Shown: positions 22,528 through 63,817, counted from the first letter of the stretch. The stretch is DNA of 64,000 nucleotides from a virus (IMGVR_UViG_3300044612_001159:1-64000), one strand, 5' to 3'. Notes: generated by a model not told the origin, from the sequence alone. Program-made: numbers and translations.

Positions 22528-22778
22528 ACTGCGATTATACCATAAAAATTGACTAATACCAAGGCTGGTGGGTATGAGACAAACCAAGGTATTAGCCAAC
22601 AATAAAATTATACCATAAAGGACAAAACGGACATCTAGATAAAAGTTTACCAAATTGTTACAATACCAAATGTCCGATTTGTCATGTTATGTCTTTTATG
22701 CCAGGATTGGGATGGTGTATACTTTAATATATATAAAGAAAAAGAATATCTTTATAGTTTTAAAAACTATCTTATATA

Positions 22779-27140: not shown

Positions 27141-27162
27141 ATCTTATCTTATCCCGCCGACA
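27141..27162 (-). promoter_or_regulatory. RecA-NDp/PafBC-type promoter
   Basis: TGTCGG-N10-TAAGAT. Confidence 0.65.
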
Positions 27163-27201
27163 TTTTGGGGAGGCGTATCGGCGTGTCGCCTGTGAAGTGT
27201 A

Positions 27202-27294
27202 TCACTTGTGGATACATTCACTCTCAATCTCGTGACCGAACTCCTCAACGAGTTCCTCATAGATTTCATCCATATAATCTAAATAGTCTGACAT
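27202..27294 (-). CDS. 30-aa acidic early peptide
   Basis: MSDYLDYMDEIYEELVEEFGHEIESECIHK; GAAAGGA RBS. Confidence 0.55.
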   Translation of the reverse strand: MSDYLDYMDEIYEELVEEFGHEIESECIHK

Positions 27295-27322
27295 ATTTTG
27301 TCCTTTCTAACTAACTAATACT

Positions 27323-27344
27323 ATCCTAACATAGACCACTGACA
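27323..27344 (-). promoter_or_regulatory. RecA-NDp/PafBC-type promoter
   Basis: TGTCAG-N10-TAGGAT. Confidence 0.7.
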
Positions 27345-27382
27345 TTTTTGGGTGTTTTTCGGGTGTGTCGCAAAACTATTTT

Positions 27383-27398
27383 TGTGATGTCTATCACA
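27383..27398. promoter_or_regulatory. CRP/GlxR-type site
   Basis: Perfect TGTGA-N6-TCACA. Confidence 0.65.
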
Positions 27399-27433
27399 TG
27401 TCCGAAATGTCCGATTTTATACAGCACGGGCGG

Positions 27434-27454
27434 TTTTCCACAGGCTGTGGATAA
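27434..27454. promoter_or_regulatory. inverted DnaA box pair
   Basis: TTTTCCACA-ggc-TGTGGATAA. Confidence 0.7.
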
Positions 27455-27458
27455 CTAA

Positions 27459-27474
27459 TGTGATAAGAATCACA
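27459..27474. promoter_or_regulatory. CRP/GlxR-type site
   Basis: Perfect TGTGA-N6-TCACA. Confidence 0.65.
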
Positions 27475-27567
27475 CTAAAAATGTCCGATTTGTACGCATT
27501 TTGGATTTGCTTTTTTGGGGTAAGTGTGTTAGACTTACAGAGTAAGAAAATAAAGAAAGGGGCTAAA

Positions 27568-27735
27568 ATGCTCACTGAAAAAACACTAAATAAAATCGTC
27601 TATGAATACCAGCATGGTGGTGTCCAAAATTATCACCCTGAAATCTCACTATCTGAGCGCATGGCGTTGATAAAGTATCTCGCCAAAATGCCCTCTAAGT
27701 GTGCGCCTGAGTGTGAGGCAAGTCACACAAACTGA
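27568..27735 (+). CDS. hypothetical early protein
   Basis: GAAAGGG RBS before MLTEKT. Confidence 0.55.
   Translation: MLTEKTLNKIVYEYQHGGVQNYHPEISLSERMALIKYLAKMPSKCAPECEASHTN
27712..27727. promoter_or_regulatory. CRP/GlxR-type site
   Basis: Perfect TGTGA-N6-TCACA. Confidence 0.6.
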
Positions 27736-27809
27736 TCGGCGTGTCGCCTTGACTTTTACAAGTAAATATGAAATAATAGCACTATAACAAAATGAAAGAA
27801 GGTAGCAAA

Positions 27810-28004
27810 ATGTCTGCTAATCTATATAATATCGAAAGCCTGCTAATTGGTAAGGCTTACCGCTCTCGCTCTGTTGAGGGTATCATTCAGGACGCTGAAA
27901 AATCAGATGTCTTCTACGCTGACGCTGAGGCGTATCGTGTTCGTATCCGCCCTACTCATGGGCTTCGTGATACTTATCGCATAGTGGCGGTGAGTGTGGC
28001 GTAA
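27810..28004 (+). CDS. hypothetical early protein, paralogue of 29125
   Basis: Y.IE.LL.G..YR ... AY...; RBS. Confidence 0.6.
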   Translation: MSANLYNIESLLIGKAYRSRSVEGIIQDAEKSDVFYADAEAYRVRIRPTHGLRDTYRIVAVSVA

Positions 28005-28038
28005 GTCACATTCCCAATACCCCCAAAATCCCCCAATT

Positions 28039-28060
28039 TGTCAGACCCCCCTGCTAGACT
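28039..28060 (+). promoter_or_regulatory. RecA-NDp/PafBC-type promoter
   Basis: TGTCAG-N7-TGc-TAGACT. Confidence 0.7.
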
Positions 28061-28090
28061 TACTAAATAACAAAACGAAAGGAAGTCAAA

Positions 28091-28288
28091 ATGACTTACA
28101 CTATGACACTAGAAACCTTCAATGGTTCTACTAAAAAAATTAGCCTGCCTTCTAAAGGTGCGGTTGCTCAATTCATAACAACTTACCCAAGCCAACTACC
28201 TGTCGGCGTAGCGGTAAAAGTATCCTGCGACACTCTCGCAATTCGTGGCACAATTCGTGGCACACTTATCCCAACAAACTCAAACTAA
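28091..28288 (+). CDS. hypothetical early protein
   Basis: GAAAGGA RBS. Confidence 0.6.
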   Translation: MTYTMTLETFNGSTKKISLPSKGAVAQFITTYPSQLPVGVAVKVSCDTLAIRGTIRGTLIPTNSN

Positions 28289-28305
28289 GAATAGGAAAAT
28301 AATAA

Positions 28306-28569
28306 ATGACTAACACAAATTTCAAAAACTATCCCTTCAATTTCAAGGGCATAAACTTTATTTCAAAAGTAGATACCACTCACCCTATCTACAACGCAAT
28401 TAGCAAACTAACTGAACAAGAATTCGTGAATATAAATTCAATGGCTCTTTCAGAATATCTTTCAGATGTAGAAATTTCAATTGATAACCTTCAACAAATT
28501 CAAGATGAACTAAACAAACTAAACGACGGTGGAACTTATGCGTTTATTGCATTAGGAGAAAATAAGTAA
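28306..28569 (+). CDS. hypothetical early protein
   Basis: ORF with RBS. Confidence 0.55.
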   Translation: MTNTNFKNYPFNFKGINFISKVDTTHPIYNAISKLTEQEFVNINSMALSEYLSDVEISIDNLQQIQDELNKLNDGGTYAFIALGENK

Positions 28570-28760
28570 TGATGACTAGAAAAGACTATATCAAAACTTC
28601 AAACATTCTAAAAGGATTTGCTGATGAAATTCATCCGCAAGTTTTTGAAGATTTAGTTGAAGAATTCGCACAATACTTTCAAGCAGATAACGAAAGATTT
28701 GATAAAGCAAAATTCGAAAAGGCTTGCGGAATTGACGAGTTAGGACTAATACCAGCATGA
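28569..28760 (+). CDS. small phage protein (MTRKDY...DN.RFD..F..ACG family)
   Basis: Recognisable motif. Confidence 0.65.
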   Translation: MMTRKDYIKTSNILKGFADEIHPQVFEDLVEEFAQYFQADNERFDKAKFEKACGIDELGLIPA

Positions 28761-28949
28761 GCAGATTTCTAACAACACTTGTTCAAATTTCTTTGTTGCT
28801 TTCTATTTATTGGATAATTAGAATTGCCAAAAAAGAAATTTAGATTTGAAACATGTAAGGTCTGCGGTAGAATTTTTATCGCAGATCTAAAATGTTTTGT
28901 GTGCGCTGCTAAACAATAATTGAAATTTCAACAAAAAGCCCCCGTGGGG

Positions 28950-28970
28950 TTTTCCACAGGTTTATCCACA
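28950..28970. promoter_or_regulatory. tandem DnaA box pair
   Basis: TTTTCCACA-ggt-TTATCCACA. Confidence 0.7.
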
Positions 28971-29071
28971 GGGCGATTTTGTGATATTTATCACTTTACG
29001 CAGCGATGTGATTTTTCCCACAAAAATATTTTTTCAAAATGTCCGATTTGTTATGATTTTCGATTTGAAAA

Positions 29072-29093
29072 TGTCAGACCAAAATGATAGGCT
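29072..29093 (+). promoter_or_regulatory. RecA-NDp/PafBC-type promoter
   Basis: TGTCAG-N7-TGa-TAGGCT. Confidence 0.7.
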
Positions 29094-29124
29094 GGAAGCC
29101 TAGAAAGTAAGAAAGGAGTTTTCA

Positions 29125-29322
29125 ATGAGAAGTTATTCAATTGAAGATTTATTAGTAGGACAATTTTACAGACCTACTTCGTTGGCTCGCCGTTATCAAG
29201 GTGGAGAAATAAACTACGCTACTAAGCGTGATGACATTTGGGTAGGAGAGAATTTTCAAGCCTACGCTATTCGCTTCAATGGTCATAAATGGGCGACTAT
29301 TGCGGTCAGGGTGTCCGACTAA
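29125..29322 (+). CDS. hypothetical early protein
   Basis: GAAAGGAG RBS. Confidence 0.6.
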   Translation: MRSYSIEDLLVGQFYRPTSLARRYQGGEINYATKRDDIWVGENFQAYAIRFNGHKWATIAVRVSD

Positions 29323-29323
29323 A

Positions 29324-29345
29324 TGTCAGACCCCAATGCTAGGAT
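29324..29345 (+). promoter_or_regulatory. RecA-NDp/PafBC-type promoter
   Basis: TGTCAG-N7-TGc-TAGGAT. Confidence 0.7.
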
Positions 29346-29370
29346 TAGAAAAGAAAGAAAGGATAACTAA

Positions 29371-29559
29371 ATGAAAACTAATATGTCGCTTAGAGAAATT
29401 GAAGATTTAGGTTTCTCACTTCAGGATAATATCTGCGTGTTTTGTTCAGCAACAATGAATAAGGAAATGCGAATTTGCTTCGGTTGCGGAGAATATAAAG
29501 GTGTAATAAATATTGTTGAGGCAGTAGGATACTATGGAAAGGAAGTTCTACCACTATGA
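29371..29559 (+). CDS. Zn-ribbon early protein
   Basis: CVFC...CFGC.EYKG. Confidence 0.6.
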   Translation: MKTNMSLREIEDLGFSLQDNICVFCSATMNKEMRICFGCGEYKGVINIVEAVGYYGKEVLPL

Positions 29560-29714
29560 AAAAAAATGTTCTAATTAGTTTTGTTACTGAGGCTGATACC
29601 GATTTACAGGCGGTATTCAACCTAAATAAAATTTTGTTCCAATTGTCTGATAGCGATTTGGTAAAATTTGATGTTTTTGATGTTGTTGAGTGTGACGGAG
29701 TAGGAGTAAAGTAA

Positions 29715-30212
29715 ATGGGATTAGATATGTATCTTCATGCTAAGAAGTATGTTGAAAAAATCGACTGGACTAAGTTAGATCGAGATAATGGTCTAGGTAT
29801 GGATAGTCCAGAAGTGGTAAATCCACTTTGGAATGAAATTGTCGATACCGCTGGAATGTCAGATGTCGCTACCGATATCTATGGCGTTCATGTTGAAGTA
29901 ACTTGTGCCTATTGGCGTAAGTCTAATCAAATTCATAAATGGTTTGTTGATAATGTTCAAGGCGGTAACGATAACTGCGGTGAATACTATGTTTCTAATG
30001 AGAAACTAAATCAACTTAGAGAAACTTGTCGTCAAGCCTTATTTGCTAAAGACCCTTCACTATTGCCACCACAGGCAGGATTTTTCTTTGGCTCATACGA
30101 TATAGATGAATGGTATTGGCAGGATATCAAGGACACTATCAAGAAAATCGACAGAGTTTTGGCTCTGCCCGATATGTCCAAATTGTCCTTTTACTACACT
30201 TCATCGTGGTAA
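29715..30212 (+). CDS. conserved phage protein (MGLDMYL...YWRK.NQIH.WF family)
   Basis: Motif recognition. Confidence 0.7.
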   Translation: MGLDMYLHAKKYVEKIDWTKLDRDNGLGMDSPEVVNPLWNEIVDTAGMSDVATDIYGVHVEVTCAYWRKSNQIHKWFVDNVQGGNDNCGEYYVSNEKLNQLRETCRQALFAKDPSLLPPQAGFFFGSYDIDEWYWQDIKDTIKKIDRVLALPDMSKLSFYYTSSW

Positions 30213-30233
30213 AGGCTTCGGGGGATTTGATTT

Positions 30234-30255
30234 TGTCAGTCCCCCATGATAGGCT
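30234..30255 (+). promoter_or_regulatory. RecA-NDp/PafBC-type promoter
   Basis: TGTCAG-N7-TGa-TAGGCT. Confidence 0.7.
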
Positions 30256-30283
30256 CTAGGTATTGAACGAAAGGAAATGAAAA

Positions 30284-30496
30284 ATGGATAAATTAGAATA
30301 CGCACTAAGGACTATTGCTAACTGCGACCTATGCTACGGCAAGGGTTATCAAGGTTGGGCTAATGGCGAGGACTTTGATATTGAGGACTGCGAGTGTAAT
30401 ATTTATGGAATTATTTTAGATGATGACGGCTCAGTAATCTATGATAATGGTTTGCTAAGTGAGCCAGAATTATTTTTGACTAGAGAGGCTAACTAA
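30284..30496 (+). CDS. Zn-binding early protein
   Basis: CDLCYGKG...CEC. Confidence 0.6.
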   Translation: MDKLEYALRTIANCDLCYGKGYQGWANGEDFDIEDCECNIYGIILDDDGSVIYDNGLLSEPELFLTREAN

Positions 30497-30497
30497 A

Positions 30498-30797
30498 ATG
30501 GGAAGTAATTTTGCTAACGAAATGGCTAGTGGCGTGTTAGATGATTTAGGTATTCACTTAGATTTGGAAACTCAGATAGGAATTCACTTGTCGTCTAATC
30601 ACTATCCGCCAGTGCCTAAATTTATGGTTCCAATTTGTATTGAAGCGATAGATGCCGTCAATGATGCGGGACTTTGGGATTTAGAAATTCCTATGCCTGA
30701 AGGAGTGACCTATAAAGGTTTGACTGCTGCGCCAGCATGGGCTATTATTGAACAACACCACTTACAGGCTTGGCTAATTGAAAGAGAGGAAGTCTAA
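30498..30797 (+). CDS. hypothetical early protein
   Basis: HL..NHYPPVP; GAGG RBS. Confidence 0.6.
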   Translation: MGSNFANEMASGVLDDLGIHLDLETQIGIHLSSNHYPPVPKFMVPICIEAIDAVNDAGLWDLEIPMPEGVTYKGLTAAPAWAIIEQHHLQAWLIEREEV

Positions 30798-30938
30798 TGA
30801 AATTTGATGAAATGCTAGGAAAGGTGCTTGAAATATTCCCTGAAGCACTATTCCATGATGATGAAACAGGTGAGGTAGTAATCTCAACAGGCTTCAGACT
30901 TGTAAATGACGAATTAGTAGCAATGGAGGAAATCTAAA

Positions 30939-31148
30939 ATGGAATACACTTATTCACTTACCACTTCCTATGACGGAAGCCTTGTAAATACCCTGCGAGT
31001 TTCAGACTTACTTGAAGCCGTAAATGCGTGGGATAAATGCGTAGACTTTGGCGATGCTAATGAATACGCAACCTATAATCTTTCAGACCCAACAGGAAAA
31101 ATGTATACTAAAACTTTTTATCGTAATGGAGAGGTAGTGGTGCGCTAA
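30939..31148 (+). CDS. hypothetical early protein
   Basis: GGAGG RBS; homologous to N-half of the 2391 ORF. Confidence 0.65.
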   Translation: MEYTYSLTTSYDGSLVNTLRVSDLLEAVNAWDKCVDFGDANEYATYNLSDPTGKMYTKTFYRNGEVVVR

Positions 31149-31391
31149 ATGTCTGATACAATAAATAGCATGAAGTTAGTTCCAGCGGATCTACTAAAGC
31201 CAGACCAACTAATGGAGGGCGACCTAATAAAAATCGGTGAAGATATTGTAGAAGTAATTGAAATATCTAGCGATGGCGCTGCCGATAATTGGTTTATTGA
31301 AACTAAAGATGAGTTTGGTGAAAAAGAAACTTTTACTTTTCACTATACTGAATCTATTCCGCTTTATGTATTTATTGAAACAATGGAATAA
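31149..31391 (+). CDS. small beta-barrel-type early protein
   Basis: L.EGD.I.......V..I pattern. Confidence 0.5.
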   Translation: MSDTINSMKLVPADLLKPDQLMEGDLIKIGEDIVEVIEISSDGAADNWFIETKDEFGEKETFTFHYTESIPLYVFIETME

Positions 31392-31515
31392 ATAAAAAGT
31401 ATTTTGTGTGCTTCCCCGCACAAAATGCCCCCGTGCTGTCCGATTTGTACCAATTGTTCTCATGTGTTTAAGATCACATTAAAAAGCCCCCCGAAATCTC
31501 CCCCTGGATTGAAAT

Positions 31516-31537
31516 TGTCAGTCGCTTCTGATAAGAT
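31516..31537 (+). promoter_or_regulatory. RecA-NDp/PafBC-type promoter
   Basis: TGTCAG-N7-TGa-TAAGAT. Confidence 0.7.
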
Positions 31538-31562
31538 TATTTATCTAAACGAAAGGCAAGAA

Positions 31563-31835
31563 ATGTTATCAACCGCATTAGCAATACAGACCGCAACAAA
31601 AGACGCAGTTCATGACGAGGAAGTTATGGGAATGGCGTCTGCTATATTTCACCATAGAAACGAAATGAGCGATGAAGCATTTGCTCAAGCAATGTATATG
31701 TATTCTGCTCATCTATCAGCGATGACTGCTACTCTAGTTACTCATGCCTGCTTGACTGAAAGTCAGATAGGCGATATGCTAGAAACTATCAAAGAATTTG
31801 ACTCACTAGGAAAGGACATAACAAATGGAAACTAA
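31563..31835 (+). CDS. hypothetical early protein
   Basis: GAAAGG RBS before MLSTAL. Confidence 0.6.
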   Translation: MLSTALAIQTATKDAVHDEEVMGMASAIFHHRNEMSDEAFAQAMYMYSAHLSAMTATLVTHACLTESQIGDMLETIKEFDSLGKDITNGN

Positions 31836-32265
31836 TGAAACAGTAGCGCCTGAGCATTATAACCCCAACCAACTCGTAACCTATAAAGTTATTGAGAGTG
31901 GTACTGCAAAATATCCAACTGTAAAGGTTGTAGATCTTGAATGGGATTTACATCAGAATCGTTCGAATGTTGCAAACCTATCTCAATATATTTCTAAAGT
32001 AAATCAGTTAGAGAATCAACTTGCTAACTATCTTGAAATGGATTCAGAAGAAATTGTTTCAGATATTTGTAGCATCTTTGGATTCAATCCAACTAAGGAA
32101 ATTGAATTTGAAGCAACTGCAACAATTACTGGTCGTGTATTAGTTGCACTATCAGACCTTGCAAACTTTGATATTGATGACATTGATTTGACTGTTTATG
32201 CAGATTCACACTCACATGATGTTGAAGTTGATGTGGAGGTTGACCACATTAGTCGCATAGACTAA
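31825..32265 (+). CDS. acidic hypothetical early protein
   Basis: ORF with RBS. Confidence 0.6.
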   Translation: METNETVAPEHYNPNQLVTYKVIESGTAKYPTVKVVDLEWDLHQNRSNVANLSQYISKVNQLENQLANYLEMDSEEIVSDICSIFGFNPTKEIEFEATATITGRVLVALSDLANFDIDDIDLTVYADSHSHDVEVDVEVDHISRID

Positions 32266-32270
32266 AAAAA

Positions 32271-32297
32271 AGACCTGAGCAAGTCTATAAACTGCTC
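32271..32297 (+). ncRNA. H-type pseudoknot element (copy A)
   Basis: AGAC-CT-GAGCA-A-GTCT-ATAAAC-TGCTC. Confidence 0.7.
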
Positions 32298-32311
32298 CTG
32301 CCCACGGGCGG

Positions 32312-32327
32312 TGTGATCTTTATCACA
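32312..32327. promoter_or_regulatory. CRP/GlxR-type site upstream of a TTGACA-N17-TAAGAT promoter
   Basis: Perfect TGTGA-N6-TCACA. Confidence 0.65.
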
Positions 32328-32470
32328 TTTGAGATTTTGACATTTTTTTGTGTTTATGATAAGATTATTTTATGAAGAAAACACCAGAGGAATTACGCAG
32401 GCTTATGGAATTACGCCGTAGCAATGCTGCCTCTGCCGTACCCTCAAAAAAGAAATACAATAGAAAGAAA

Positions 32471-32492
32471 AGTCAGTCCTCGCTGATACAAT
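32471..32492 (+). promoter_or_regulatory. RecA-NDp/PafBC-type promoter (variant)
   Basis: AGTCAG-N7-TGa-TACAAT. Confidence 0.55.
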
Positions 32493-32513
32493 TGAGGAAA
32501 GAAAGGGCCCCCC

Positions 32514-33236
32514 ATGACTAAACTAAAACGCTCTAATGATAGGAAAGTGGCTAATGCTGTATCAAAAAACGGAAAGACCCCAACAATTGCCAACACTTTT
32601 GGATTGCCTAGTGGTAAGGCTTACTCATGTCCTGGTGAAACCTCTGTATGCAGCAAAGTATGCTACGCAGGAAAACTCGAAAAGATCTACAAAGGTGTAA
32701 GAGATAATCTATTACACAATTGGAATTTACTAAAAGACGCTAACTATGAAGAGATGTATGACTTACTTTCTGCAATGATAAAAGAGTTTATTGTTGATTG
32801 TGAAAAGAAAGACGCTCCTAAACTATTCCGCATTCACTGGGACGGAGATTTCTTCAATGATGAATACGCAAGGGCCTGGAAGCATGTCATTCTAAATAAT
32901 CCTGATGTTCAATTCTGGGTATACACTAGAGTGAAATCTGCTGCCCTAATTCTCAAGGGTATGGATAATTTGTCTCTATACTACTCTGCAGATAGCGAAA
33001 ATGTCAAAACTGCTGTAGACCTAAAACTAAATCATGGTGTACGCATGGCATACCTTGCACAAAACTTTGCAACTGGTAAAGCAGATGTAAAAGAAATGAT
33101 TGGAAGACCTGCTGCTAAGTGTCCTGAAAATGCAAAACAAATTCCACTAATCTCAACTAAGGGCTCGGCTTGCGTTTCTTGCTCACTTTGTGTATACTCT
33201 AAGAGCGACATAATTTTCTCTGCGAGTAAGAAATGA
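32514..33236 (+). CDS. GP88-family protein (mycobacteriophage L5 gp88-like)
   Basis: CPG....C...CYA, FRIHWDGDF, FWVYTR, C-terminal C..C..C. Confidence 0.75.
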   Translation: MTKLKRSNDRKVANAVSKNGKTPTIANTFGLPSGKAYSCPGETSVCSKVCYAGKLEKIYKGVRDNLLHNWNLLKDANYEEMYDLLSAMIKEFIVDCEKKDAPKLFRIHWDGDFFNDEYARAWKHVILNNPDVQFWVYTRVKSAALILKGMDNLSLYYSADSENVKTAVDLKLNHGVRMAYLAQNFATGKADVKEMIGRPAAKCPENAKQIPLISTKGSACVSCSLCVYSKSDIIFSASKK

Positions 33237-33464
33237 GATAAATGGATACCAAACAAGTTATTTTATTATTGATGTTTTTATTTATTTTCTTTTTATATCA
33301 GTGAAAGGGCGGCACGTCCGCAAAATCTTTGGTTTGTCAAGTCATTATAATGTGATTATAAACACTTTATAAATCCCCCCGCAGATCCCCGCTGAATTGT
33401 ATTTTTGACATTTTTCTGCTAGACTTATACTATAAGAAATAACCCCACAACGAAAGGAAACACA

Positions 33465-33635
33465 ATGACCCTCGGAGGATACACTTATCAGATTGGTGAC
33501 CTATTCACCACCAGCAAGACAGGCGTTACAGGTCGTATCGCAAGTTTCGCACCAATGTCTAACAGTGTTACTAGAGTTAGTCTTGTCTTGGCAAATGGCT
33601 CTCGCCGTTTGGCTATGGTAAAGACCAGCAAGTAA
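33465..33635 (+). CDS. 56-aa SH3/KOW-like early protein
   Basis: Hand-translated MTLGGYTYQIGDLFTTSKTGVTGRI...; paralogue of next gene. Confidence 0.65.
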   Translation: MTLGGYTYQIGDLFTTSKTGVTGRIASFAPMSNSVTRVSLVLANGSRRLAMVKTSK

Positions 33636-33734
33636 TCTCAAAATGTGAGAAATGTCAGACCTAGATTTGACATTTTTCTACAATAATGTCATAATTATAC
33701 AATAAGCAATAACCCCTAACAGAAAGGCAACACA

Positions 33735-33899
33735 ATGTCAGTAGCAACAGCAACATACAAGGTAGGCGACACCTACACCACACAGAAGTCAAAGGTCACA
33801 GGAGTAATCACAGAGATTACACCACAAGCCAATGGTAATGTTCGTGTGAAACTTGATGTCAATGGTAAGTCACGCTATACCACTTGGACAGCAAAGTAA
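33735..33899 (+). CDS. 54-aa SH3/KOW-like early protein
   Basis: Hand-translated MSVATATYKVGDTYTTQKSKVTGVI... Confidence 0.65.
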   Translation: MSVATATYKVGDTYTTQKSKVTGVITEITPQANGNVRVKLDVNGKSRYTTWTAK

Positions 33900-33915
33900 T
33901 TCCTAATACAGGAAA

Positions 33916-33944
33916 AGTCCTGAGCACGACTACTAAAACTGCTC
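33916..33944 (+). ncRNA. H-type pseudoknot element (copy B)
   Basis: AGTC-CT-GAGCA-C-GACT-ACTAAAAC-TGCTC. Confidence 0.7.
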
Positions 33945-33952
33945 AACAAGAT

Positions 33953-33974
33953 TGTCAGCGCAAAGTGCTAGACT
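33953..33974 (+). promoter_or_regulatory. RecA-NDp/PafBC-type promoter
   Basis: TGTCAG-N7-TGc-TAGACT. Confidence 0.7.
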
Positions 33975-34004
33975 AAATACCCCACAAACGAAAGGACAGA
34001 CCCA

Positions 34005-34430
34005 ATGGCAAGAGGACAAAAAGCCATTAGTGTAAAGATTGCTACAACCAAAGTAATCAAGGCACTAGAAACTAAGTTAGACCAAATCAAGAAAGATAAG
34101 GCTAACCAAAAAACTAACGAGGAGAAGTATCAGAAGGCTTACGAAAAGTGGCTAAAAGATGTTGCTAAACTTTCTCTCGCTCAAATCTCAAAGGCAGAAA
34201 ACCTACGAGCAAGTGTTCGCTATAATGGCAACATAAATGTAGATTTTGATTTGCCTAAGTCTGCGGTAGCAGATTTCCCTGCTGAACCTGAAAAGGATTT
34301 TGAGACTTTTCACGATTGGCAATACAAGGAAATGGTAGAAGAAATTGAGAACGCAATTCGTATTCTCAAGATGACAGATGAGGAAGTAGTTTCCACATCT
34401 ACTTACAACGCTATCGCAAGATACTTGTAA
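34005..34430 (+). CDS. coiled-coil early protein
   Basis: GAAAGGA RBS. Confidence 0.65.
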   Translation: MARGQKAISVKIATTKVIKALETKLDQIKKDKANQKTNEEKYQKAYEKWLKDVAKLSLAQISKAENLRASVRYNGNINVDFDLPKSAVADFPAEPEKDFETFHDWQYKEMVEEIENAIRILKMTDEEVVSTSTYNAIARYL

Positions 34431-34436
34431 TAAAAC

Positions 34437-34463
34437 TTTCCTGAGCAAGAAATAAAACTGCTC
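34437..34463 (+). ncRNA. H-type pseudoknot element (copy C)
   Basis: TTTC-CT-GAGCA-A-GAAA-TAAAAC-TGCTC. Confidence 0.7.
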
Positions 34464-34542
34464 ACCAATAAAACTAAATAAAATTGGGTGACAGCCTGCG
34501 TTCAAGGCAGATCTATCTGCGAAAGTCCCCTGGCACTCCCTA

Positions 34543-34584
34543 ACACCTGAGTATGGAGGAAATCCTTTAGTGTCTAAACTGCTC
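34543..34584 (+). ncRNA. H-type pseudoknot element (copy D, with inserted hairpin)
   Basis: ACAC-CT-GAGTA-[insert]-GTGT-CTAAAC-TGCTC. Confidence 0.6.
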
Positions 34585-34607
34585 CACCTCAAAATCCCCC
34601 CGTGCCG

Positions 34608-34627
34608 TTATCCACAGGTTATCCACA
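34608..34627. promoter_or_regulatory. tandem DnaA box pair
   Basis: TTATCCACA-gg-TTATCCACA. Confidence 0.75.
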
Positions 34628-34629
34628 GG

Positions 34630-34645
34630 TGTGAATTTGATCACA
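34630..34645. promoter_or_regulatory. CRP/GlxR-type site
   Basis: Perfect TGTGA-N6-TCACA. Confidence 0.65.
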
Positions 34646-34694
34646 TTTACGATATGTCCGATTTATCCCTTATCTAACTATCCAGATTTGCATT

Positions 34695-34716
34695 TGTCAG
34701 ACTAGACTGCTATACT
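34695..34716 (+). promoter_or_regulatory. RecA-NDp/PafBC-type promoter
   Basis: TGTCAG-N7-TGc-TATACT. Confidence 0.7.
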
Positions 34717-34748
34717 TGAAATTCAACAAACAATAAGGAGAAAAACTC

Positions 34749-35765
34749 ATGGCACATGACCTAGAAACACAAAACGGCAAGACATCTTTCGCATCTTTCC
34801 GTGAACCCGCATGGCATGGATTGGGTACTGTCTTTACAGAAGAAAAAACAACTGCAGAAATGCTAGAGGCTGCAAACCTCAATGGTTGGAATGTTCGTCT
34901 TGAAGATATGTCTATTCCATCTCATCTAACAAGCGACAAGCAATACCAATATGTTGTTCGCACTAACCCTACCGATAACACACAAACCGACATTCTTGGT
35001 GTCGTTGGTGAGCGTTATCATGTTCTGCAGAATGAAGACCTATTTTCATTCGGTGATAATATTCTTGACGGCGGAGGTCGTTGGGAAACTGCTGGTGCAA
35101 TCAAGGGTGGTCGTGTTGTATTCGGCTCACTTGCACTAGAGCGTGAAACCGTATTAGACCCTAGCGGTGTTGCAGATAAGGTAAAGACTTATCTTCTCAT
35201 CAATACCTCACATGACGGCTCAATCGCTATTCAAGCATCAATCACACCTGTTCGTGTTGTATGCGCTAATACTCTCAATCTTGCACTAGGTGGCAAGAAA
35301 AAGAAGAATGGCATCAAGCAATCATTCAAGATTCGCCACACACAAACTGCCAATGGTAAAGTGCAGATTGCTCGTGAAACTCTTGGTCTTGCTAATGCAT
35401 ACATGGACGAATTCGACATCATGGCTAAGGCTATGTTCGAGAAGGAAGTCAATGCTCAACAATTCAATGACATCATTCTTGCTGCGTATCCAAAGCCTGA
35501 TAAAGATGCTAAGGGTTCAATCAAGAAGTGGGAAAACAAGGTTGATGTTATCAATGACATCTATACTGGCGAATTCAATGGTATGATTGCTGGTAATGCT
35601 TGGGGTGCTTTCAATGCACTAACCGAACGCCTTGATTGGTATCGTACCGCAAGAGGTGGTTCTAACGAATCAATTCTTGCATCTGCGAGTGGATTTGACC
35701 CTGCTATCAATGCAGAAAAAAATCGTTTGCTAAAAGTTGTGCAAAATGTAATGCAGATTGCATAA
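34749..35765 (+). CDS. DUF932/DUF945 phage/plasmid protein (TIGR03299-like)
   Basis: PAWHGLG, LGVVG.RY..LQN, ETAG...GG, SHDGS, TPVRVVC.NTL. Confidence 0.85.
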   Translation: MAHDLETQNGKTSFASFREPAWHGLGTVFTEEKTTAEMLEAANLNGWNVRLEDMSIPSHLTSDKQYQYVVRTNPTDNTQTDILGVVGERYHVLQNEDLFSFGDNILDGGGRWETAGAIKGGRVVFGSLALERETVLDPSGVADKVKTYLLINTSHDGSIAIQASITPVRVVCANTLNLALGGKKKKNGIKQSFKIRHTQTANGKVQIARETLGLANAYMDEFDIMAKAMFEKEVNAQQFNDIILAAYPKPDKDAKGSIKKWENKVDVINDIYTGEFNGMIAGNAWGAFNALTERLDWYRTARGGSNESILASASGFDPAINAEKNRLLKVVQNVMQIA

Positions 35766-35773
35766 ATAAAAAA

Positions 35774-35800
35774 ATTCCTGAGCAAGAATAAAAACTGCTC
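35774..35800 (+). ncRNA. H-type pseudoknot element (copy E)
   Basis: ATTC-CT-GAGCA-A-GAAT-AAAAAC-TGCTC. Confidence 0.7.
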
Positions 35801-35807
35801 ACCAATT

Positions 35808-35883
35808 GGTTCCGTAGATTAGTCTGGTTTAAATCGCTACACTGTCACTGTAGAGATCGTGGGTTCAAATCCCATCGGAATCG
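35808..35883 (+). tRNA. tRNA-Asp(GTC)
   Basis: GGTTCCG/CGGAATC acceptor, CTACA-CTGTCAC-TGTAG anticodon arm, GGTTCAAATCC. Confidence 0.9.
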
Positions 35884-36201
35884 CAAAGAAAATCGGGACG
35901 TGGGGATTCGGACATTTCGGACATAAAAATATCAATCTTAAATTAAATTACGAAGAACGAAATAAATCCCCAAAAATATCAAAACCAAAAACAATTACGA
36001 TAGAGTTGACATTTCCCTGATTTTCTGCCATAATTTATACATGACCCAAACATACAAACCATACACCATAGATGAACTGGTGACAGAAATCTATGAGGAC
36101 AACCTGTCACACTTTGAATTTGAGGAAAACATGGGTGGAGAGCCCTGTGACTGCTATCTACATAACACTATGAATACTATCATGAAATACTGGGGGGAAT
36201 A

Positions 36202-36402
36202 ATGAACCAACTAATTGAATATATAAAGATACATATCATTAGCCTAGAGCAAGACCTAGAGCAAATCTCTAATGAAATGGAAGCACTTGACCCTGCCTCT
36301 AAGGATTATACTGAGTTAGATTTTGAATATAATCATATGAGTGGACAACTTCTTTCTGCCCGCCATATTTTGTCAGTGGCCGACGGTATACTAGAGGTAT
36401 GA
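36202..36402 (+). CDS. hypothetical protein
   Basis: ORF; overlaps next start. Confidence 0.55.
   Translation: MNQLIEYIKIHIISLEQDLEQISNEMEALDPASKDYTELDFEYNHMSGQLLSARHILSVADGILEV
36371..36392 (+). promoter_or_regulatory. RecA-NDp/PafBC-type promoter, leaderless to ATG 36399
   Basis: tTGTCAGTG-N8-TATACT-N6-ATG. Confidence 0.75.
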
Positions 36403-39770: not shown

Positions 39771-39791
39771 TGTGGATAAACCTGTGGATAA
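39771..39791. promoter_or_regulatory. tandem DnaA box pair
   Basis: TGTGGATAA-acc-TGTGGATAA. Confidence 0.75.
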
Positions 39792-40373: not shown

Positions 40374-40394
40374 TGTGGATAAACCTGTGGATAA
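40374..40394. promoter_or_regulatory. tandem DnaA box pair
   Basis: TGTGGATAA-acc-TGTGGATAA. Confidence 0.75.
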
Positions 40395-41561: not shown

Positions 41562-42143
41562 ATGGAAAATTTCAACAAAATCTACTTAGAAGAAAATATC
41601 TTTTACATAGAAAATTTTATATCAGATACTGACATAGAAGAGGTTCTTGCTAATGTCGGATCTTGGACTCTCAGAAGACAAGATCATCATGAAAAGATAT
41701 CATTTTCTATATTTGAGTCAGAAGAGGCGATTAATAAATTTAAAAAACTCGTCGAGGATAAAGTTTCTATTGTAACAAACAATAAAGATCAAAAACTAAG
41801 AAAGATATCCATGTTGCAAAAATATAGCCCTACCGACTCATCTCCATTGGCTTTAGGGTATCACTACGAAAACCACCCAGAATGTGATTACGAATCTAGA
41901 TGGATCACCCTTGGTGTTGTACTATACCTAAATGATGGATACGCAGGTGGAGAGTTAATATTTGAACACAAACCTATTGAGTTTGCCCCTAAGAAGGGAA
42001 CACTAATAGTGTTTCCAGCAAGTGAAGAATATAGTCATGCTGTAAAACAGGTCACAGGCAAGGATCGTATTGTATATTCTGCATTCGTATATGCTAAACA
42101 ATATTGGGACATATTAAATAGAGCAGGGTTTACTGACTTTTAA
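41562..42143 (+). CDS. 2OG-Fe(II) oxygenase
   Basis: HYE, YLND.Y.GGEL.F, H.V..V.G..R. Confidence 0.8.
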   Translation: MENFNKIYLEENIFYIENFISDTDIEEVLANVGSWTLRRQDHHEKISFSIFESEEAINKFKKLVEDKVSIVTNNKDQKLRKISMLQKYSPTDSSPLALGYHYENHPECDYESRWITLGVVLYLNDGYAGGELIFEHKPIEFAPKKGTLIVFPASEEYSHAVKQVTGKDRIVYSAFVYAKQYWDILNRAGFTDF

Positions 42144-42684
42144 TAGCATTATCAAGAAACATCTGCAAAGTAACTCTTAGGTTATTACCTAAAACTGGGG
42201 TTGTATAGTGCAATTCAAACTTATCGTTGTAGACCAATAGCCCACGCTTAGGGGTTATTATGTTCCACTCTTGAGTCTGTTCATCCTTGTAGTGAAACAT
42301 ACCACCGTTATTAATACTCCACTCTTGGTTAAGATATACTGTTATTGGCTTTCTGCTATCTCCTACTTTGCCATCCTTATGAGGAGGTATATAGGATCCA
42401 GGGGTAAATAGGGTTACCTGTGCACCCACAGCATCACCTTTCTTTATAATTCCAAGGTCAATCAACTCATCTGATATTAAATCACACAACAAATCAGGGA
42501 CTATGTAGAGTATGGCTATGTGACTGTGCTCTCTTACATTTTCAGGCCAAGACATATTCGTAGTGGTTACAACTGGATTGGGGTATCCAAACTTAGATAT
42601 TTCTGAGGCATTATAGTAACTCATAGCAAAATTGTATAGTTCCTCACACAGGCTATCGCTAAGGCCTTTATCGTATATCTTCAC
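42130..42684 (-). CDS. 2OG-Fe(II) oxygenase
   Basis: HKD, YLN..W...GG, H..TPV...R. Confidence 0.8.
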   Translation of the reverse strand: MKIYDKGLSDSLCEELYNFAMSYYNASEISKFGYPNPVVTTTNMSWPENVREHSHIAILYIVPDLLCDLISDELIDLGIIKKGDAVGAQVTLFTPGSYIPPHKDGKVGDSRKPITVYLNQEWSINNGGMFHYKDEQTQEWNIITPKRGLLVYNDKFELHYTTPVLGNNLRVTLQMFLDNAIKSQ

Positions 42685-42687
42685 GCC

Positions 42688-43002
42688 TTATTGTACCATT
42701 TTGATCGCTTTATTAATCATGCGTATCAAACCTCGTCTGGTTATCTTTGAGGCATCAAAGGTCTCTGTATAGCCTCCCTGTGGCATATATTCCTTGTCTA
42801 GGAAAGAACCATGTTTTTCCCTTAGTGTTCTTAGTACTAGTGTTTCTACGGCTCTTGCCTTATCCCGTTCGGAAAACCACCAATACTTAATCAATACCCA
42901 ACCCTTAGTCCTATGGCTTGCAAACCTTCTTCCGCTTACATCTGATATACCTATCTTGACAGCCTTATATACAGGGCTATAAAGTATATAAAGTAAAGTC
43001 AT
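42688..43002 (-). CDS. GIY-YIG/T5orf172-like nuclease
   Basis: LYIL...KIGIS...R...H ... E. Confidence 0.55.
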   Translation of the reverse strand: MTLLYILYSPVYKAVKIGISDVSGRRFASHRTKGWVLIKYWWFSERDKARAVETLVLRTLREKHGSFLDKEYMPQGGYTETFDASKITRRGLIRMINKAIKMVQ

Positions 43003-43029
43003 GTCTTTATTATACCCCGTCGAAAATGA

Positions 43030-43659
43030 CTATTTAAAAAGCACTTCTCTTGTTGAGTCTTTGGTAAACCACATGGGGATAGTATATCTGTCTTCGTTTG
43101 TAATATTTATTTGATGAACCATATCAACATTGTGCGATGGAAAAATTACTAAATTCCCTAAACTTGGCTTGATTGACAAATTCATAGTTGGAAAATAAAG
43201 TTCTCCACCATCATTTACTGTATTTAAATATAAAATAGAACTATAAGCAAAATGTTGTTGATACCCACTTCCCACATCAGAATGAACCCTTAGCCAATCA
43301 CCCTTTAAATGTTTAGCCAACCACAAAGAGGTCAGATACTGGGTCTCTTTTTCCTCATATAATTCTTTTATATTTGTTTTTGCTTTTTCAACTATACTTT
43401 TGATTAAATCCTCTATGTCTTCAAGCCTTGTTATAAATTTTTCTGGTTTATACGTTTTCATTTCGTCGTCTTGTCCAAACCTTCTTTTATAAAATCTATT
43501 TTCAAGATAAACAAAGTTTGGACTTGATCCATCGCTCATCCAAGGTTCGGCATTAATAATATTACGATTTATATAATTAATTATTTTATTTGATTCTTCC
43601 GTGTTTATAAAATTTTCAACGATTTTTACTTTTTCTTCTGGATCTTGAAATGCTGTCAT
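43030..43659 (-). CDS. 2OG-Fe(II) oxygenase
   Basis: HSD, YLN...GGELYFP, H...RY. Confidence 0.85.
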   Translation of the reverse strand: MTAFQDPEEKVKIVENFINTEESNKIINYINRNIINAEPWMSDGSSPNFVYLENRFYKRRFGQDDEMKTYKPEKFITRLEDIEDLIKSIVEKAKTNIKELYEEKETQYLTSLWLAKHLKGDWLRVHSDVGSGYQQHFAYSSILYLNTVNDGGELYFPTMNLSIKPSLGNLVIFPSHNVDMVHQINITNEDRYTIPMWFTKDSTREVLFK

Positions 43660-43818
43660 TTATCTATTGTATCATAGGGTATAATTAATATATGAATGAA
43701 CAAAAAATAAAACAAAGCGTTAGGGCTTTAACAGTCCTATTTGGAATATTTATTGCCGTAACCATAATTGCAGCCATATTTGCTTGACATATAGCCATAA
43801 ACCTGTCATACTAGTAGT

Positions 43819-44334
43819 ATGCAAACATTTCTACCATCTCAAGACTTTACCCAGTCTGCCCAAATACTAGACTCAAAGCGCCTTAACAAACAAATATTAG
43901 AGTGCTACCAGATTCTCAATGTTCTATCTGGCAAGTCGCCTACAGGTGGATGGCGTAATCATCCAGCAGTATTGATGTGGCGTGGCTTTGAGCGAGGTCT
44001 ATGGGCGTATGTGCAGGCTATGATTGTGGAAGCCAAGTATCGTGGTATCAAGACAGAAAACAATGAGACAAACCTGAACAGACTTAAAGACCAGTGTTGG
44101 GATGATTGGGGTAGCGATGCTCCAGCATTTTGGTTTGACAACAACAAATTGTCTAGGGTTACTACTACACACAAGGTAAGTTTGTTTAACAAAGATCCTT
44201 TGTATTATGCAAGGTTTCAGCCACATGTTAATAGTTTCTTTAACTCCCCTTGCTGTCCTGAGCGTAAGTTGCCGTGTAAGTATTATTGGCCAACACACGA
44301 AAAAGTAACCGATAGTGCCCTTGTAGGGAATTGA
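43819..44334 (+). CDS. MSMEG_6728 / pyrimidine-dimer DNA glycosylase (DenV-like) family
   Basis: MQTFLP, LD.KRL.KQ..E..QIL, GW.NHPAV.MW.G. Confidence 0.8.
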   Translation: MQTFLPSQDFTQSAQILDSKRLNKQILECYQILNVLSGKSPTGGWRNHPAVLMWRGFERGLWAYVQAMIVEAKYRGIKTENNETNLNRLKDQCWDDWGSDAPAFWFDNNKLSRVTTTHKVSLFNKDPLYYARFQPHVNSFFNSPCCPERKLPCKYYWPTHEKVTDSALVGN

Positions 44335-50095: not shown

Positions 50096-50779
50096 ATGGA
50101 AAAAATATATCTAGATGAAGATAAACAGGTTTGGGTCATTGAAGACTTTTTAACAAAAGAAGAACTAGAATGGTTCAAAACACAAACAGACGATGAACTT
50201 GGCTGGTATCCAACAATGAGGTCGCCTTATAAAAATATACTAAATAAATTTTTAAATGTTGTTCCTAAATATGATGAAAACGGAAATATAGAATTTCCAA
50301 ATGAAGCATCTGAGGTTATAGACCTTCCAGTATTTACAAGACCAAATGGCGTATGGCAAAGACTTGAGTCTGTTCTTCCTCCATCATACCGCAGACATGC
50401 CACACTTCAAAGTTTTAAATATATGACAGATGATCAAATAAAAGAAAATTTAAATATGGATATAATAAATTCATATAACATAGATGATAAAAATATAGAC
50501 TTTGCTATGTATTGGCATGAAGATCCAGGCCATGAGCAAAATATTGTATGCTCCTTTAGTTTGTATCTTAATGATGATTACGAGGGCGGAGAATTAGAGT
50601 TTGCTGAAGTTCCGATTAAGTTAAAGCCAAAGGCTGGAACGCTTGCCGTAATTCCTGGAGGACATAAATATAGGCACAGAGTTAATAAAGTGTTAGGCCC
50701 AAATTCAAGACATACTCTTTACGGAAACTCTTATATAGACCCCTCAATAGTTGTTGCAAGCACAAAGGATGACTGTTAA
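50096..50779 (+). CDS. 2OG-Fe(II) oxygenase, DC-ending subfamily
   Basis: HED, YLNDDYEGGELEF, HRV. Confidence 0.85.
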   Translation: MEKIYLDEDKQVWVIEDFLTKEELEWFKTQTDDELGWYPTMRSPYKNILNKFLNVVPKYDENGNIEFPNEASEVIDLPVFTRPNGVWQRLESVLPPSYRRHATLQSFKYMTDDQIKENLNMDIINSYNIDDKNIDFAMYWHEDPGHEQNIVCSFSLYLNDDYEGGELEFAEVPIKLKPKAGTLAVIPGGHKYRHRVNKVLGPNSRHTLYGNSYIDPSIVVASTKDDC

Positions 50780-52840: not shown

Positions 52841-52962
52841 CCCCTATAATGCTATAATAGTAGTAAGGGTGTAGTTAGCCTATATTTGTCGGGAAACACT
52901 TATAGCCTATGTTGCAACACTACACCCCCTATTTTTGATCAAACATAAAAGAAAGAGATATA

Positions 52963-57867: not shown

Positions 57868-58145
57868 AATTCTTTTCCTCCCTCTCTAACTAACTGAACA
57901 ATTGCCCCATTCTGCTCAAGAGCCTTCTTTGTTTTAATCATATAGTTTGCAGCACGAATCTTGTCATCATGACTTAAAAGCATAAAAGATTTTTCAGACG
58001 CACGAACAGTTAAAAATCCTTCTTGATGCTCAACTATCTGTAATGAAAAACCTTTAGGCGCTAAATGATCTAGTGACCTAAACGCCCTTCTCATTGCATC
58101 TGTATATACTAGTCCATTGTTAGAGACTGCCATGTTACACCCCAA
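57864..58145 (-). CDS. hypothetical protein
   Basis: ORF; start uncertain. Confidence 0.5.
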   Translation of the reverse strand: MGCNMAVSNNGLVYTDAMRRAFRSLDHLAPKGFSLQIVEHQEGFLTVRASEKSFMLLSHDDKIRAANYMIKTKKALEQNGAIVQLVREGGKEL

Positions 58146-58390
58146 TCAGCCTTTGTTTTATGATTAGAGAACTCTTTTGATATTTCGCCGTTTTCTAAGT
58201 ATACCCCGCCCCAAACTCCCCACTCTTTGCCAGAAATGCCCACAGAAAAACACTCTTTTCTTACTGGACATTCAGAACATAACAGGTCTACAGCAGGCCT
58301 TAACAACTCATCTTCTTCGTATTTATCAAAAAAAACATTAGTATCATAATCTAGGCATGCAGCATTATCTTTCCATTCATACCTATTCAT
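58109..58390 (-). CDS. whiB: WhiB-family transcription factor
   Basis: W...A.C, C..CPV...C, GVWGG. Confidence 0.9.
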   Translation of the reverse strand: MNRYEWKDNAACLDYDTNVFFDKYEEDELLRPAVDLLCSECPVRKECFSVGISGKEWGVWGGVYLENGEISKEFSNHKTKADWGVTWQSLTMD

Positions 58391-62775: not shown

Positions 62776-63306
62776 CTAGTTTGTCAATTCGCCAATATAA
62801 TTTAAATTAATAATACATCTAATCTTAGAGTCTGTTTGTGATACTCCAGAATGCATTACATTTGAATCAAACATAACAAGCCTATTTTCTACACTGTCTA
62901 CTTTTGATCCGTCTTCAAAAATGGTATATCCATTATTACTATTTAAATAAAATATTGCTGTTGTATTATTAAACTCAGTATCTGAATGCATGCCACCAAC
63001 TACTGGGACGCTTGTCCTTGTGCCAAGATTCACCTTTACTCTATATATGTATGAAGGATTTATTTTTTTTATTAACGGATCTAATACATTATAAAAATCT
63101 GATTTAATTTCATTTTTTAGACATAGTGTATTAAAAAATTGAAACTTATCTAGTCCATACTCTTCGTCTGAAGACACCACAATTGGACTATAAAACCAAG
63201 GGAAATTACCACCTAGAACGGTATTCTGAATAGTTTTAAAATCATTTTCATTTAAAAAGTTATCTAAAATTTTAATTTTTTCTCCTAAAACTTTAAGCAG
63301 TAACAA
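62776..63306 (-). CDS. 2OG-Fe(II) oxygenase-like protein
   Basis: FPW.Y, H.D, YLN.NNG.T.F, NRL..FD...H, R...N.N. Confidence 0.7.
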   Translation of the reverse strand: MLLLKVLGEKIKILDNFLNENDFKTIQNTVLGGNFPWFYSPIVVSSDEEYGLDKFQFFNTLCLKNEIKSDFYNVLDPLIKKINPSYIYRVKVNLGTRTSVPVVGGMHSDTEFNNTTAIFYLNSNNGYTIFEDGSKVDSVENRLVMFDSNVMHSGVSQTDSKIRCIINLNYIGELTN

Positions 63307-63817
63307 CGTCTACTGGACCCATGCAAGATGGGCTAAACTTAATTGCTGCACTTACAGCCTGAAGCACTCTGTTTCTTGCATTTTTTTGCTTATCTGTTGC
63401 ATATAAAACACCATACGCATATTCCGCCCCAGATCCCATTGCGATATATGGGGTAGAGTATTTAGATAAAGACATGTCTACAGCACTGTGTTCATAAATC
63501 TCTCCACGAACTGCAATAATTAAACCAAGGTCTCCATCTTTTGTGGTATCAACCCAAAACTCATTATAGAACTCTCTCAGTTCTTTAATGAATTTAGTCT
63601 GCATAAATTTATCTGTATCCTTAATATTGGGTGCGGTTGGCTTAAAATTGTAACGAATTCTTTCTCCGTCTAATGCCCCAGCATATCCAATAAGGTATGG
63701 ACCTATCTTCCAAACCTTGGGTGCTTCAAGAGCAAGGATCGTTCCATCATCAGATGCACCACGATCTCCTGCCATGTAAACTTTACCTTCGTGTTTTAAT
63801 ACAGCAATACAGGTCAT
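63293..63817 (-). CDS. Ntn-hydrolase, proteasome beta/HslV-like protease
   Basis: N-terminal Thr (MTCIA), AGD, PKV, G.AG, A.GSG..YA.G. Confidence 0.75.
   Translation of the reverse strand: MTCIAVLKHEGKVYMAGDRGASDDGTILALEAPKVWKIGPYLIGYAGALDGERIRYNFKPTAPNIKDTDKFMQTKFIKELREFYNEFWVDTTKDGDLGLIIAVRGEIYEHSAVDMSLSKYSTPYIAMGSGAEYAYGVLYATDKQKNARNRVLQAVSAAIKFSPSCMGPVDVVTA

Follow-up and report, generated by a model that had tools for sequence, protein, structure and literature searches.

Promoters with a TGTCAG box in the small-gene island of a lake actinophage match the architecture of actinobacterial PafBC promoters

The phage genome and its small-gene island

We examined the virus record IMGVR_UViG_3300044612_001159 from IMG/VR (115,665 bp, CheckV 100% complete, GC content 37.6%), the first 64 kb of which form the window, i.e., the whole stretch of DNA to which the original prediction referred. 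An island of small genes at 27141-36392 holds all eleven promoters of the TGTCAG type found in this genome. A divergent control region at about 27.35-27.55 kb separates the two that point left from the nine that point right. These promoters have the box, spacing and -10 element of the actinobacterial promoters that are read with PafBC, the activator of a cellular DNA-damage response, and we lean slightly towards the view that the host reads them with its PafBC or with a closely related WYL protein.

Besides six tRNA genes, the phage encodes tail-fibre, glycosyltransferase, oxygenase, DnaE-type polymerase, DnaB, class II ribonucleotide reductase, portal and prohead protease proteins. A WhiB-family gene of 93 amino acids (aa) lies on the minus strand at 58109-58390 (45.9 bits against a Pfam profile cut-off of 23.6), and WhiB is a standard phylum-level marker of actinophages (PMC10202952, PMC6802176). 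DnaE shares 55% identity over 100% of its length, and the portal 48% over 99%, with the proteins of Streptomyces BE-cluster phages (Stanwilliamsviridae), values that we read as a sign of relatedness only and not of family membership. The GP88-family gene of the island (240 aa) is 50-57% identical to mycobacteriophage and BE-phage genes; its homologues occur towards one end of cluster-A-type mycobacteriophage genomes and, in BE phages, in the terminal array of small genes. The low GC content had first raised the suspicion of a non-actinobacterial host, but this is contradicted by WhiB, DnaE, the portal and the GP88-family gene, on the basis of which the virus, which is of lytic type, is classified as an actinophage.

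A DNA-binding domain was found by Pfam in 0 of 30 island proteins, and about 30 proteins of the island have no recognisable domain. We infer from gene size and from homology to the presumed-early arrays of other actinophages that the island genes are early genes. The island itself gave no megablast match to cultured phages, and tblastn matches of the tail-fibre gene were rejected as being caused by low-complexity sequence. Elsewhere in the genome, many 2OG-Fe(II) oxygenase genes are dispersed over the accessory regions (including 41562-44334 and 50096-50779), and a weak match to a proteasome subunit (PF00227, E 3e-5) was seen at 63293-63817 on the minus strand.

Eleven promoters of a distinct class

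The pattern TGTCRG-N10-TANNNT had 11 matches in the window against 1.05 expected, a number reached by none of 100 shuffles (0/100). The original prediction had listed eleven sites with a fixed 10-nt spacing, each in front of a small gene and none in front of structural or accessory genes. Ten of its sites are among the 11 pattern matches (the other match lies at 52887) and its remaining site, at 32471, is an AGTCAG variant that was confirmed separately. The stricter form TGTCAG-N10-TANNNT occurs nine times in the whole genome, all between 27.3 and 36.4 kb, whereas the reversed control has none. When the 461 distinct sites of 80 related phages were turned into a weight matrix and this was applied with a threshold of >=12 bits, it returned, over the 115,665 bp, exactly the eleven listed sites (27.1-36.4 kb) and no other, so that the set as well as its restriction to the island could be recovered in full. 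The match at 52887 (TGTCGG, without TG) is probably not a promoter, as it scores below the matrix threshold and lies within a long hairpin followed by a T run. This hairpin with its T run (52860-52940; GGGTGTAGT...ACTACACCC), which encloses the chance TGTCGG, is kept in two related phage contigs.

Among the eleven sites the box is TGTCAG in nine, TGTCGG in one and AGTCAG in one, with GTC present in 11/11, and all eleven have both the N10 spacer and a TAnnnT -10 element. Nine carry TG at -15/-14 (an extended -10), the number claimed beforehand, the exceptions being 27141(-) and 36371, and four show a weak TTGnnn in the 17-nt -35 register. A ribosome-binding sequence (GAAAGGA or AAGGAG) and an ATG follow within about 20-35 nt, except at 36371, where the start is leaderless. 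We take the eleven sites to be genuine promoters that form a class of their own, in which a TAnnnT -10 element, usually preceded by TGn, is combined with a TGTCAG box standing in for a proper -35 element.

The two leftward promoters are the weakest copy of all, TGTCGG-N10-TAAGAT without TG (27141-27162, minus strand, 12.9 bits), in front of a 48-aa open reading frame (ORF) at 27110-26964, and TGTCAGTGG...TGT-TAGGAT (27323-27344, minus strand, 25.7 bits), in front of a 41-aa ORF at 27269-27144. On the plus strand, the top-scoring copy of the set, TGTCAGACCCC...TGC-TAGACT (28039-28060, 33.9 bits), precedes ORFs at 28091-28288, 28306-28569 and 28569-28760, which are followed by a terminator-like hairpin at 28858-28888. 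The promoter TGTCAGACC...TGA-TAGGCT (29072-29093), with TTGAAA in the -35 register, precedes the ORF at 29125-29322; TGTCAGACCCC...TGC-TAGGAT (29324-29345, 32.6 bits) precedes those at 29371-29559, 29556-29714 and 29715-30212; and TGTCAGTCCCC...TGA-TAGGCT (30234-30255) stands before five ORFs within 30284-31391. TTGAAA occupies the -35 register also in TGTCAGTCG...TGA-TAAGAT (31516-31537), whose ORFs (31563-31835 and 31825-32265) are again followed by a terminator-like hairpin, at 32291-32312. The AGTCAG variant with TGA-TACAAT (32471-32492, 21.5 bits) is located before the GP88-family gene (32514-33236), TGTCAGCGC...TGC-TAGACT (33953-33974) before a 141-aa ORF (34005-34430), and TGTCAGACT...TGC-TATACT (34695-34716) before the 338-aa DUF932 gene (34749-35765). 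The last copy, TGTCAGTGG-N7-TATACT (36371-36392), lacks TG and has, as the original prediction stated, the full RecA-NDp form; its leaderless ATG at 36399 is 6 nt past the -10 element. All nine of these copies from 28039 onward are on the plus strand.

Conservation of the motif in the phage lineage

Among 388 confirmed relatives in IMG/VR, we took 80 related loci comprising 1.37 Mb, and these contained 599 exact copies of the motif against 5 of the reversed control. Each of the 13 near-complete relatives carried 5-14 copies, most of them clustered within a single block of about 10 kb per genome; together they had 117, compared with 12 in the control. In the relatives, the spacer was N10 in 365 of 380 TGTCAG...TGnTAnnnT pairs, and across the lineage 365 boxes were TGTCAG and 16 were TGTCGG. 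The logo of the lineage consists of A-W-W, TGTCAG, (T/A)(C/G)(C/G)C, a variable stretch, TGn and a TAnAAT-like element, with little information at the -35 position; G is present at -14 in 77% and T at -15 in 67%, while TTG occurs in the -35 register of 101 of the 461 lineage sites. In 37 distinct relatives the promoter of the DUF932 gene retains the box and the TA...T, and its spacer drifts. The motif is thus a trait of the lineage.

Four metatranscriptome runs from four studies contain 48-67% of the sampled words of the island. Contigs from RNA libraries, with 0-2 mismatches, span for example 27695-28708 and 33380-33911; they carry no information on strand, start or level, and DNA carry-over is uncontrolled in them.

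Other promoters and regulator-like sites near the TGTCAG promoters

Promoters outside the island have the form TTGACA-like-N17-TGnTATAAT. Inside the island we found at least seven canonical promoters, TTGACA-like-N17-(TGn)TAnnnT, near 27527, 27749, 32337, 33405, 33667, 36006 and 36853. The TGTCAG class is therefore distinct and local, yet it is not the sole entry to the island: the promoter class put forward in the original prediction stands, with the correction that other promoters drive the island as well.

The same control regions are rich in sites that resemble those of host regulators. DnaA boxes (TTATCCACA) form five tandem pairs (27434-27454, 28950-28970, 34608-34627, 39771-39791 and 40374-40394); the genome has 10 exact copies where about 1 would be expected. 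Three of the pairs directly precede island promoters, among them the TGTCAG promoters at 29072 and 34695. The exact CRP/GlxR-type palindrome TGTGA-N6-TCACA occurs five times (27383, 27459, 27712, 32312 and 34630; about 0.2 expected), always inside the island and adjoining DnaA boxes and promoters. A further element, AATGTCCGATTT, is repeated in control regions at 27406, 27480 and 29038, occurs also at 22669 and 105613 (minus strand), and is strongly conserved upstream of the DUF932 promoter in relatives. Immediately upstream of the 29072 promoter, AATGTCCGATTT is accompanied by a pair of DnaA boxes and a CRP-like half site. The presence of DnaA and CRP/GlxR-type sites beside TGTCAG promoters suggests that the phage uses host regulator sites generally; no LexA box was found in the phage.

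Such crowding is of relevance to an alternative explanation, namely that these are ordinary extended -10 promoters of sigma-A and that the box is an operator or spacer element with another role, e.g., the binding site of a repressor that shuts the island later. TGn is common to nearly all other promoters of the phage as well as to nine of the eleven sites discussed here, and the weak TTGnnn at four of the eleven (and at about a fifth of the lineage sites) points in the same direction. The rigid N10 spacer (365/380) and the single orientation of the box, however, typify an element that is read together with the polymerase rather than a free operator, the box is non-palindromic, and in cells the same element accompanies WYL pairs and repair genes (see below). 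We regard this explanation as improbable.

Comparison with PafBC promoters and distribution of PafBC-like genes

The PafBC motif defined in vivo by chromatin immunoprecipitation sequencing and cryo-electron microscopy (cryo-EM) is tGTCgg(N10)tA(N3)T (PMC8635444). In the cryo-EM structure, the helix-turn-helix (HTH) of PafB touches positions -23 to -28, there is no -35 element, and PafC touches region 4 of sigma-A; two arginines recognise the GTC triplet, which hardly varies among actinobacterial recA promoters (PMC8635444). PafBC is activated by single-stranded DNA (ssDNA) and joins a polymerase that is already on the promoter (PMC11804915), and its amount is not raised by damage (PMC8635444). 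Use of RecA-NDp promoters has been reported for Streptomyces (PMC5087735).

With its box at -28 to -23, its spacer and its -10 element, the phage promoter equals the published PafBC promoter, and the architecture that the original prediction had ascribed to PafBC agrees with PMC8635444 in box, spacing and position. The phage promoters share with the PafBC/RecA-NDp (recA P1-type) promoters of Mycobacterium, Streptomyces and other Actinobacteria (PMC8635444, PMC11804915, PMC6789036) the tGTCRg at -28 to -23, N10 and TAnnnT, and for the most part also the lack of a strong -35 element; a TGG flank is common to some copies of both. They differ in that they precede small genes and not repair genes, the box is nearly always TGTCAG, the commonest flank is A/T-CC(C), TGn is mostly present and a weak TTG occurs in about one fifth; for the phage, PafBC dependence is a prediction. 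Since PafBC joins a polymerase sitting on the promoter, the extended -10 would favour such joining. We found no publication that describes PafBC-type promoters in a phage, as the original prediction had presumed.

To see how the motif is distributed in cells, we selected 401 genomes by even sampling across the phylum and examined 21 small genomes, some of which are Humimicrobiia-like metagenome-assembled genomes (MAGs); the findings below do not depend on any genome marked as unpublished. A tandem WYL pair was present in 5 of the 21 and no WYL gene in 11. The motif precedes recA in 4 of the 5 genomes with a tandem WYL pair, compared with 0 of the 11 without any WYL gene, and at least 7 of these 11 have instead a TTGACA -35 element and a LexA box at recA. 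The motif at recA hence follows the WYL pair, which indicates that in cells it goes with pafBC-like gene pairs and is no feature of sigma-A promoters in general. Many streamlined members of the phylum seem able to do without PafBC; the small genomes without WYL include G021, G051, G036, G066, G044, G007 and G151 (loci L128-L156).

Genome G312 (about 69% GC, tandem WYL pair) had 13 motif matches against 0 in the control, preceding recA, a leaderless radA, and ssb-like, comM-like, yraN-like and dnaN genes (named by eye from their N-termini); the leaderless start of radA is shared with the phage promoter at 36371. Its boxes have two types of flank, TGTCGGTGG and TGTCAGACCC, both of which are found in the phage too. 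The motif lies about 80-100 nt upstream of the conserved RecA domain in G312 and 60-70 nt before it in three genomes of 37-42% GC that possess tandem WYL pairs (G361, G339 and G022). In the low-GC genomes with a pafBC-like pair, genome-wide motif counts are not above the control owing to the high background, and only orthologous sites and recA are informative there.

The number of sites raises the question of whether the array is mainly a decoy that titrates PafBC from host repair or defence genes, expression of the small genes being secondary. Eleven sites per genome, multiplied by replication, and a PafBC level that damage does not raise (PMC8635444) would suit such a role, and pafBC has been linked to mycobacteriophage resistance, as cited in PMC12848934. 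Each site is, however, properly spaced before a ribosome-binding sequence and a gene, or before a leaderless start, as in working promoters; titration would be inefficient because PafBC binds only with promoter-bound polymerase; and a decoy would supplement reading by PafBC rather than displace it. We consider a mainly decoy function very improbable.

Search for a phage-encoded reader and for the host

Six-frame searches of the whole genome found no WYL protein, which extends the earlier observation made for the window, and there was none in the 13 near-complete relatives. Six-frame searches of the phage also detected neither sigma-70 region 2 nor a single-subunit RNA polymerase, and the MotA and AsiA profiles (PF09114, PF09010) had no match in the phage at E up to 1, the control genomes for this search including no phage. 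The original prediction had named a phage activator or sigma factor as what would speak against it: no sigma factor, WYL protein, MotA or AsiA came to light, but the domain-less island proteins and a TGTC box in the cultured phage Mildred21 weaken this point.

Streptomyces phage Mildred21 (Stanwilliamsviridae, Samistivirus; MF155946.1, loci L185 and L187) has 13 matches to TGTC-N12-TAGA[CG]T against 1 in the control; these stem from 7 different sites, as 6 of the sites recur in the second terminal repeat. They are located at 1.3-9.3 kb, 17.0 kb and 122-130 kb, have the form TTGnnn-n-TGTCnn-N10-TAGACT, and are confined to the terminal small-gene array that contains a homologue of the GP88-family gene of the island; when GTC offsets are plotted as a histogram, the maximum is at 12 nt. 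TGTC is thus in the same register as in the lake phage, with variable box positions 5-6 (CC, CT, TG, GC, AG, GT), but Mildred21 differs in that a TTGnnn -35 element at 17 nt is usual, and in being a cultured phage of high GC content. The papers searched contained no description of these promoters. In two other phages of the family, BillNye and Coruscant, the strict TGTCRG class and the looser TGTC class are both missing.

These data bear on a second alternative, in which a factor encoded by the phage reads the TGTCAG box, either a small early or virion-carried protein or WhiB on region 4 of sigma-A, in a manner similar to MotA/AsiA of T4, and the likeness to PafBC is a shared structural solution or due to chance. 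The island has its domain-less proteins as candidates, the phage possesses WhiB, and WhiB-type proteins bind region 4 of sigma-A. The looser class in the homologous array of Mildred21 is what vertical inheritance predicts. The middle promoters of T4 are likewise a phage class with a box between -35 and -10, often an extended -10, and redirection of a host sigma-70-type polymerase; the T4 MotA box is TGCTT centred at -30. They differ from the promoters described here in the sequence and position of the box, in that this phage has no MotA or AsiA homologue, and in that the proposed reader here is a host protein. T4 as a precedent is cited in PMC8635444. Against a phage-encoded factor, no MotA, AsiA, sigma or WYL homologue was found; the chance of matching the host box (1-2 of 4096 hexamers, in the same register) would be about 1 in 10,000 as a rough inference; the flank variants (TGG, A/T-CC) occur also at cellular repair promoters; and BillNye and Coruscant of the same family lack the class. 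A phage-encoded reader therefore appears unlikely, though it deserves more weight than the operator or decoy explanations.

We followed several routes to the host. The phage WhiB had no cellular match at E 1e-14 or better in the 401 genomes of the phylum, and in a protein atlas it matched only viral WhiB clusters. Among genome contigs, it matched only phage contigs mis-binned in unrelated MAGs (Acidimicrobiaceae, Chitinophagaceae, Polynucleobacter, Saccharibacteria and others). The Acidimicrobiaceae MAG G001 (70% GC, with a WYL pair) was rejected as a host, having 19 motif matches against 17 in the control, i.e., no enrichment; some of its matches (contigs C75, C89, C102 and C117) resemble phage contigs. 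The phage Hsp20, examined as a host link, reached at most 36% identity in 30 small genomes.

Proposed mechanism and implications

According to the reading that we favour, the promoters would be recognised by host sigma-A RNA polymerase together with the host PafBC heterodimer. PafB would use its HTH to recognise the GTC of the box, with PafC touching region 4 of sigma, a case of sigma adaptation. PafBC would be switched on by ssDNA, which infection itself may supply. Of the transcription units in the island, about 60% would then be boosted or gated by the ssDNA alarm of the host, while the canonical sigma-A promoters of the island would be able to fire without PafBC. The PafBC interpretation of the original prediction is partly supported, namely by the match of the motif, the actinophage nature of the virus and the tracking of the motif with WYL pairs.

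Several observations weigh against reading by PafBC. TGn at 9 of the 11 sites and TTG at 101 of the 461 lineage sites imply that PafBC may boost rather than gate, and that sigma-A alone may suffice. BillNye and Coruscant lack the motif although their Streptomyces hosts are expected to have PafBC, and the looser class of Mildred21 could be explained equally well by a factor passed down within the phage family and by a host factor. The genomes of low GC content with a pafBC-like pair use TGTCGC, TGTCAC or TGTCGG, not TGTCAG, and the island promoters precede phage genes lacking an assigned function, not repair genes. Finally, PafBC is not universal, and as 11 of the 21 small-genome actinobacteria have no WYL gene, its presence in a streamlined lake host cannot be assumed. 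A host without WYL would defeat the reading.

So far, PafBC and sigma adaptation have been described only for the DNA-damage response of cells. We give about even chances to the broader proposal that these lake actinophages, a globally abundant lineage, have placed most of their small-gene island under the PafBC ssDNA sensor of the host, so that the alarm, perhaps triggered by incoming or replicating phage DNA, serves as activator or timer, and that the array might drain PafBC from host repair or defence. If true, this would be the first viral use of sigma adaptation and a new viral route to host transcription, via a stress sensor of the host and not via an own sigma factor or appropriator. 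The promoters themselves are short and modular, and the looser class of Mildred21 supplies a laboratory system in a host genus that is reported to use RecA-NDp promoters. Infection would be linked to the sensing of ssDNA, with WYL-type alarms turned against the cell, and as the lineage is abundant in lakes and present in the RNA libraries of four studies, the mechanism could be of importance to freshwater actinobacterial ecology.

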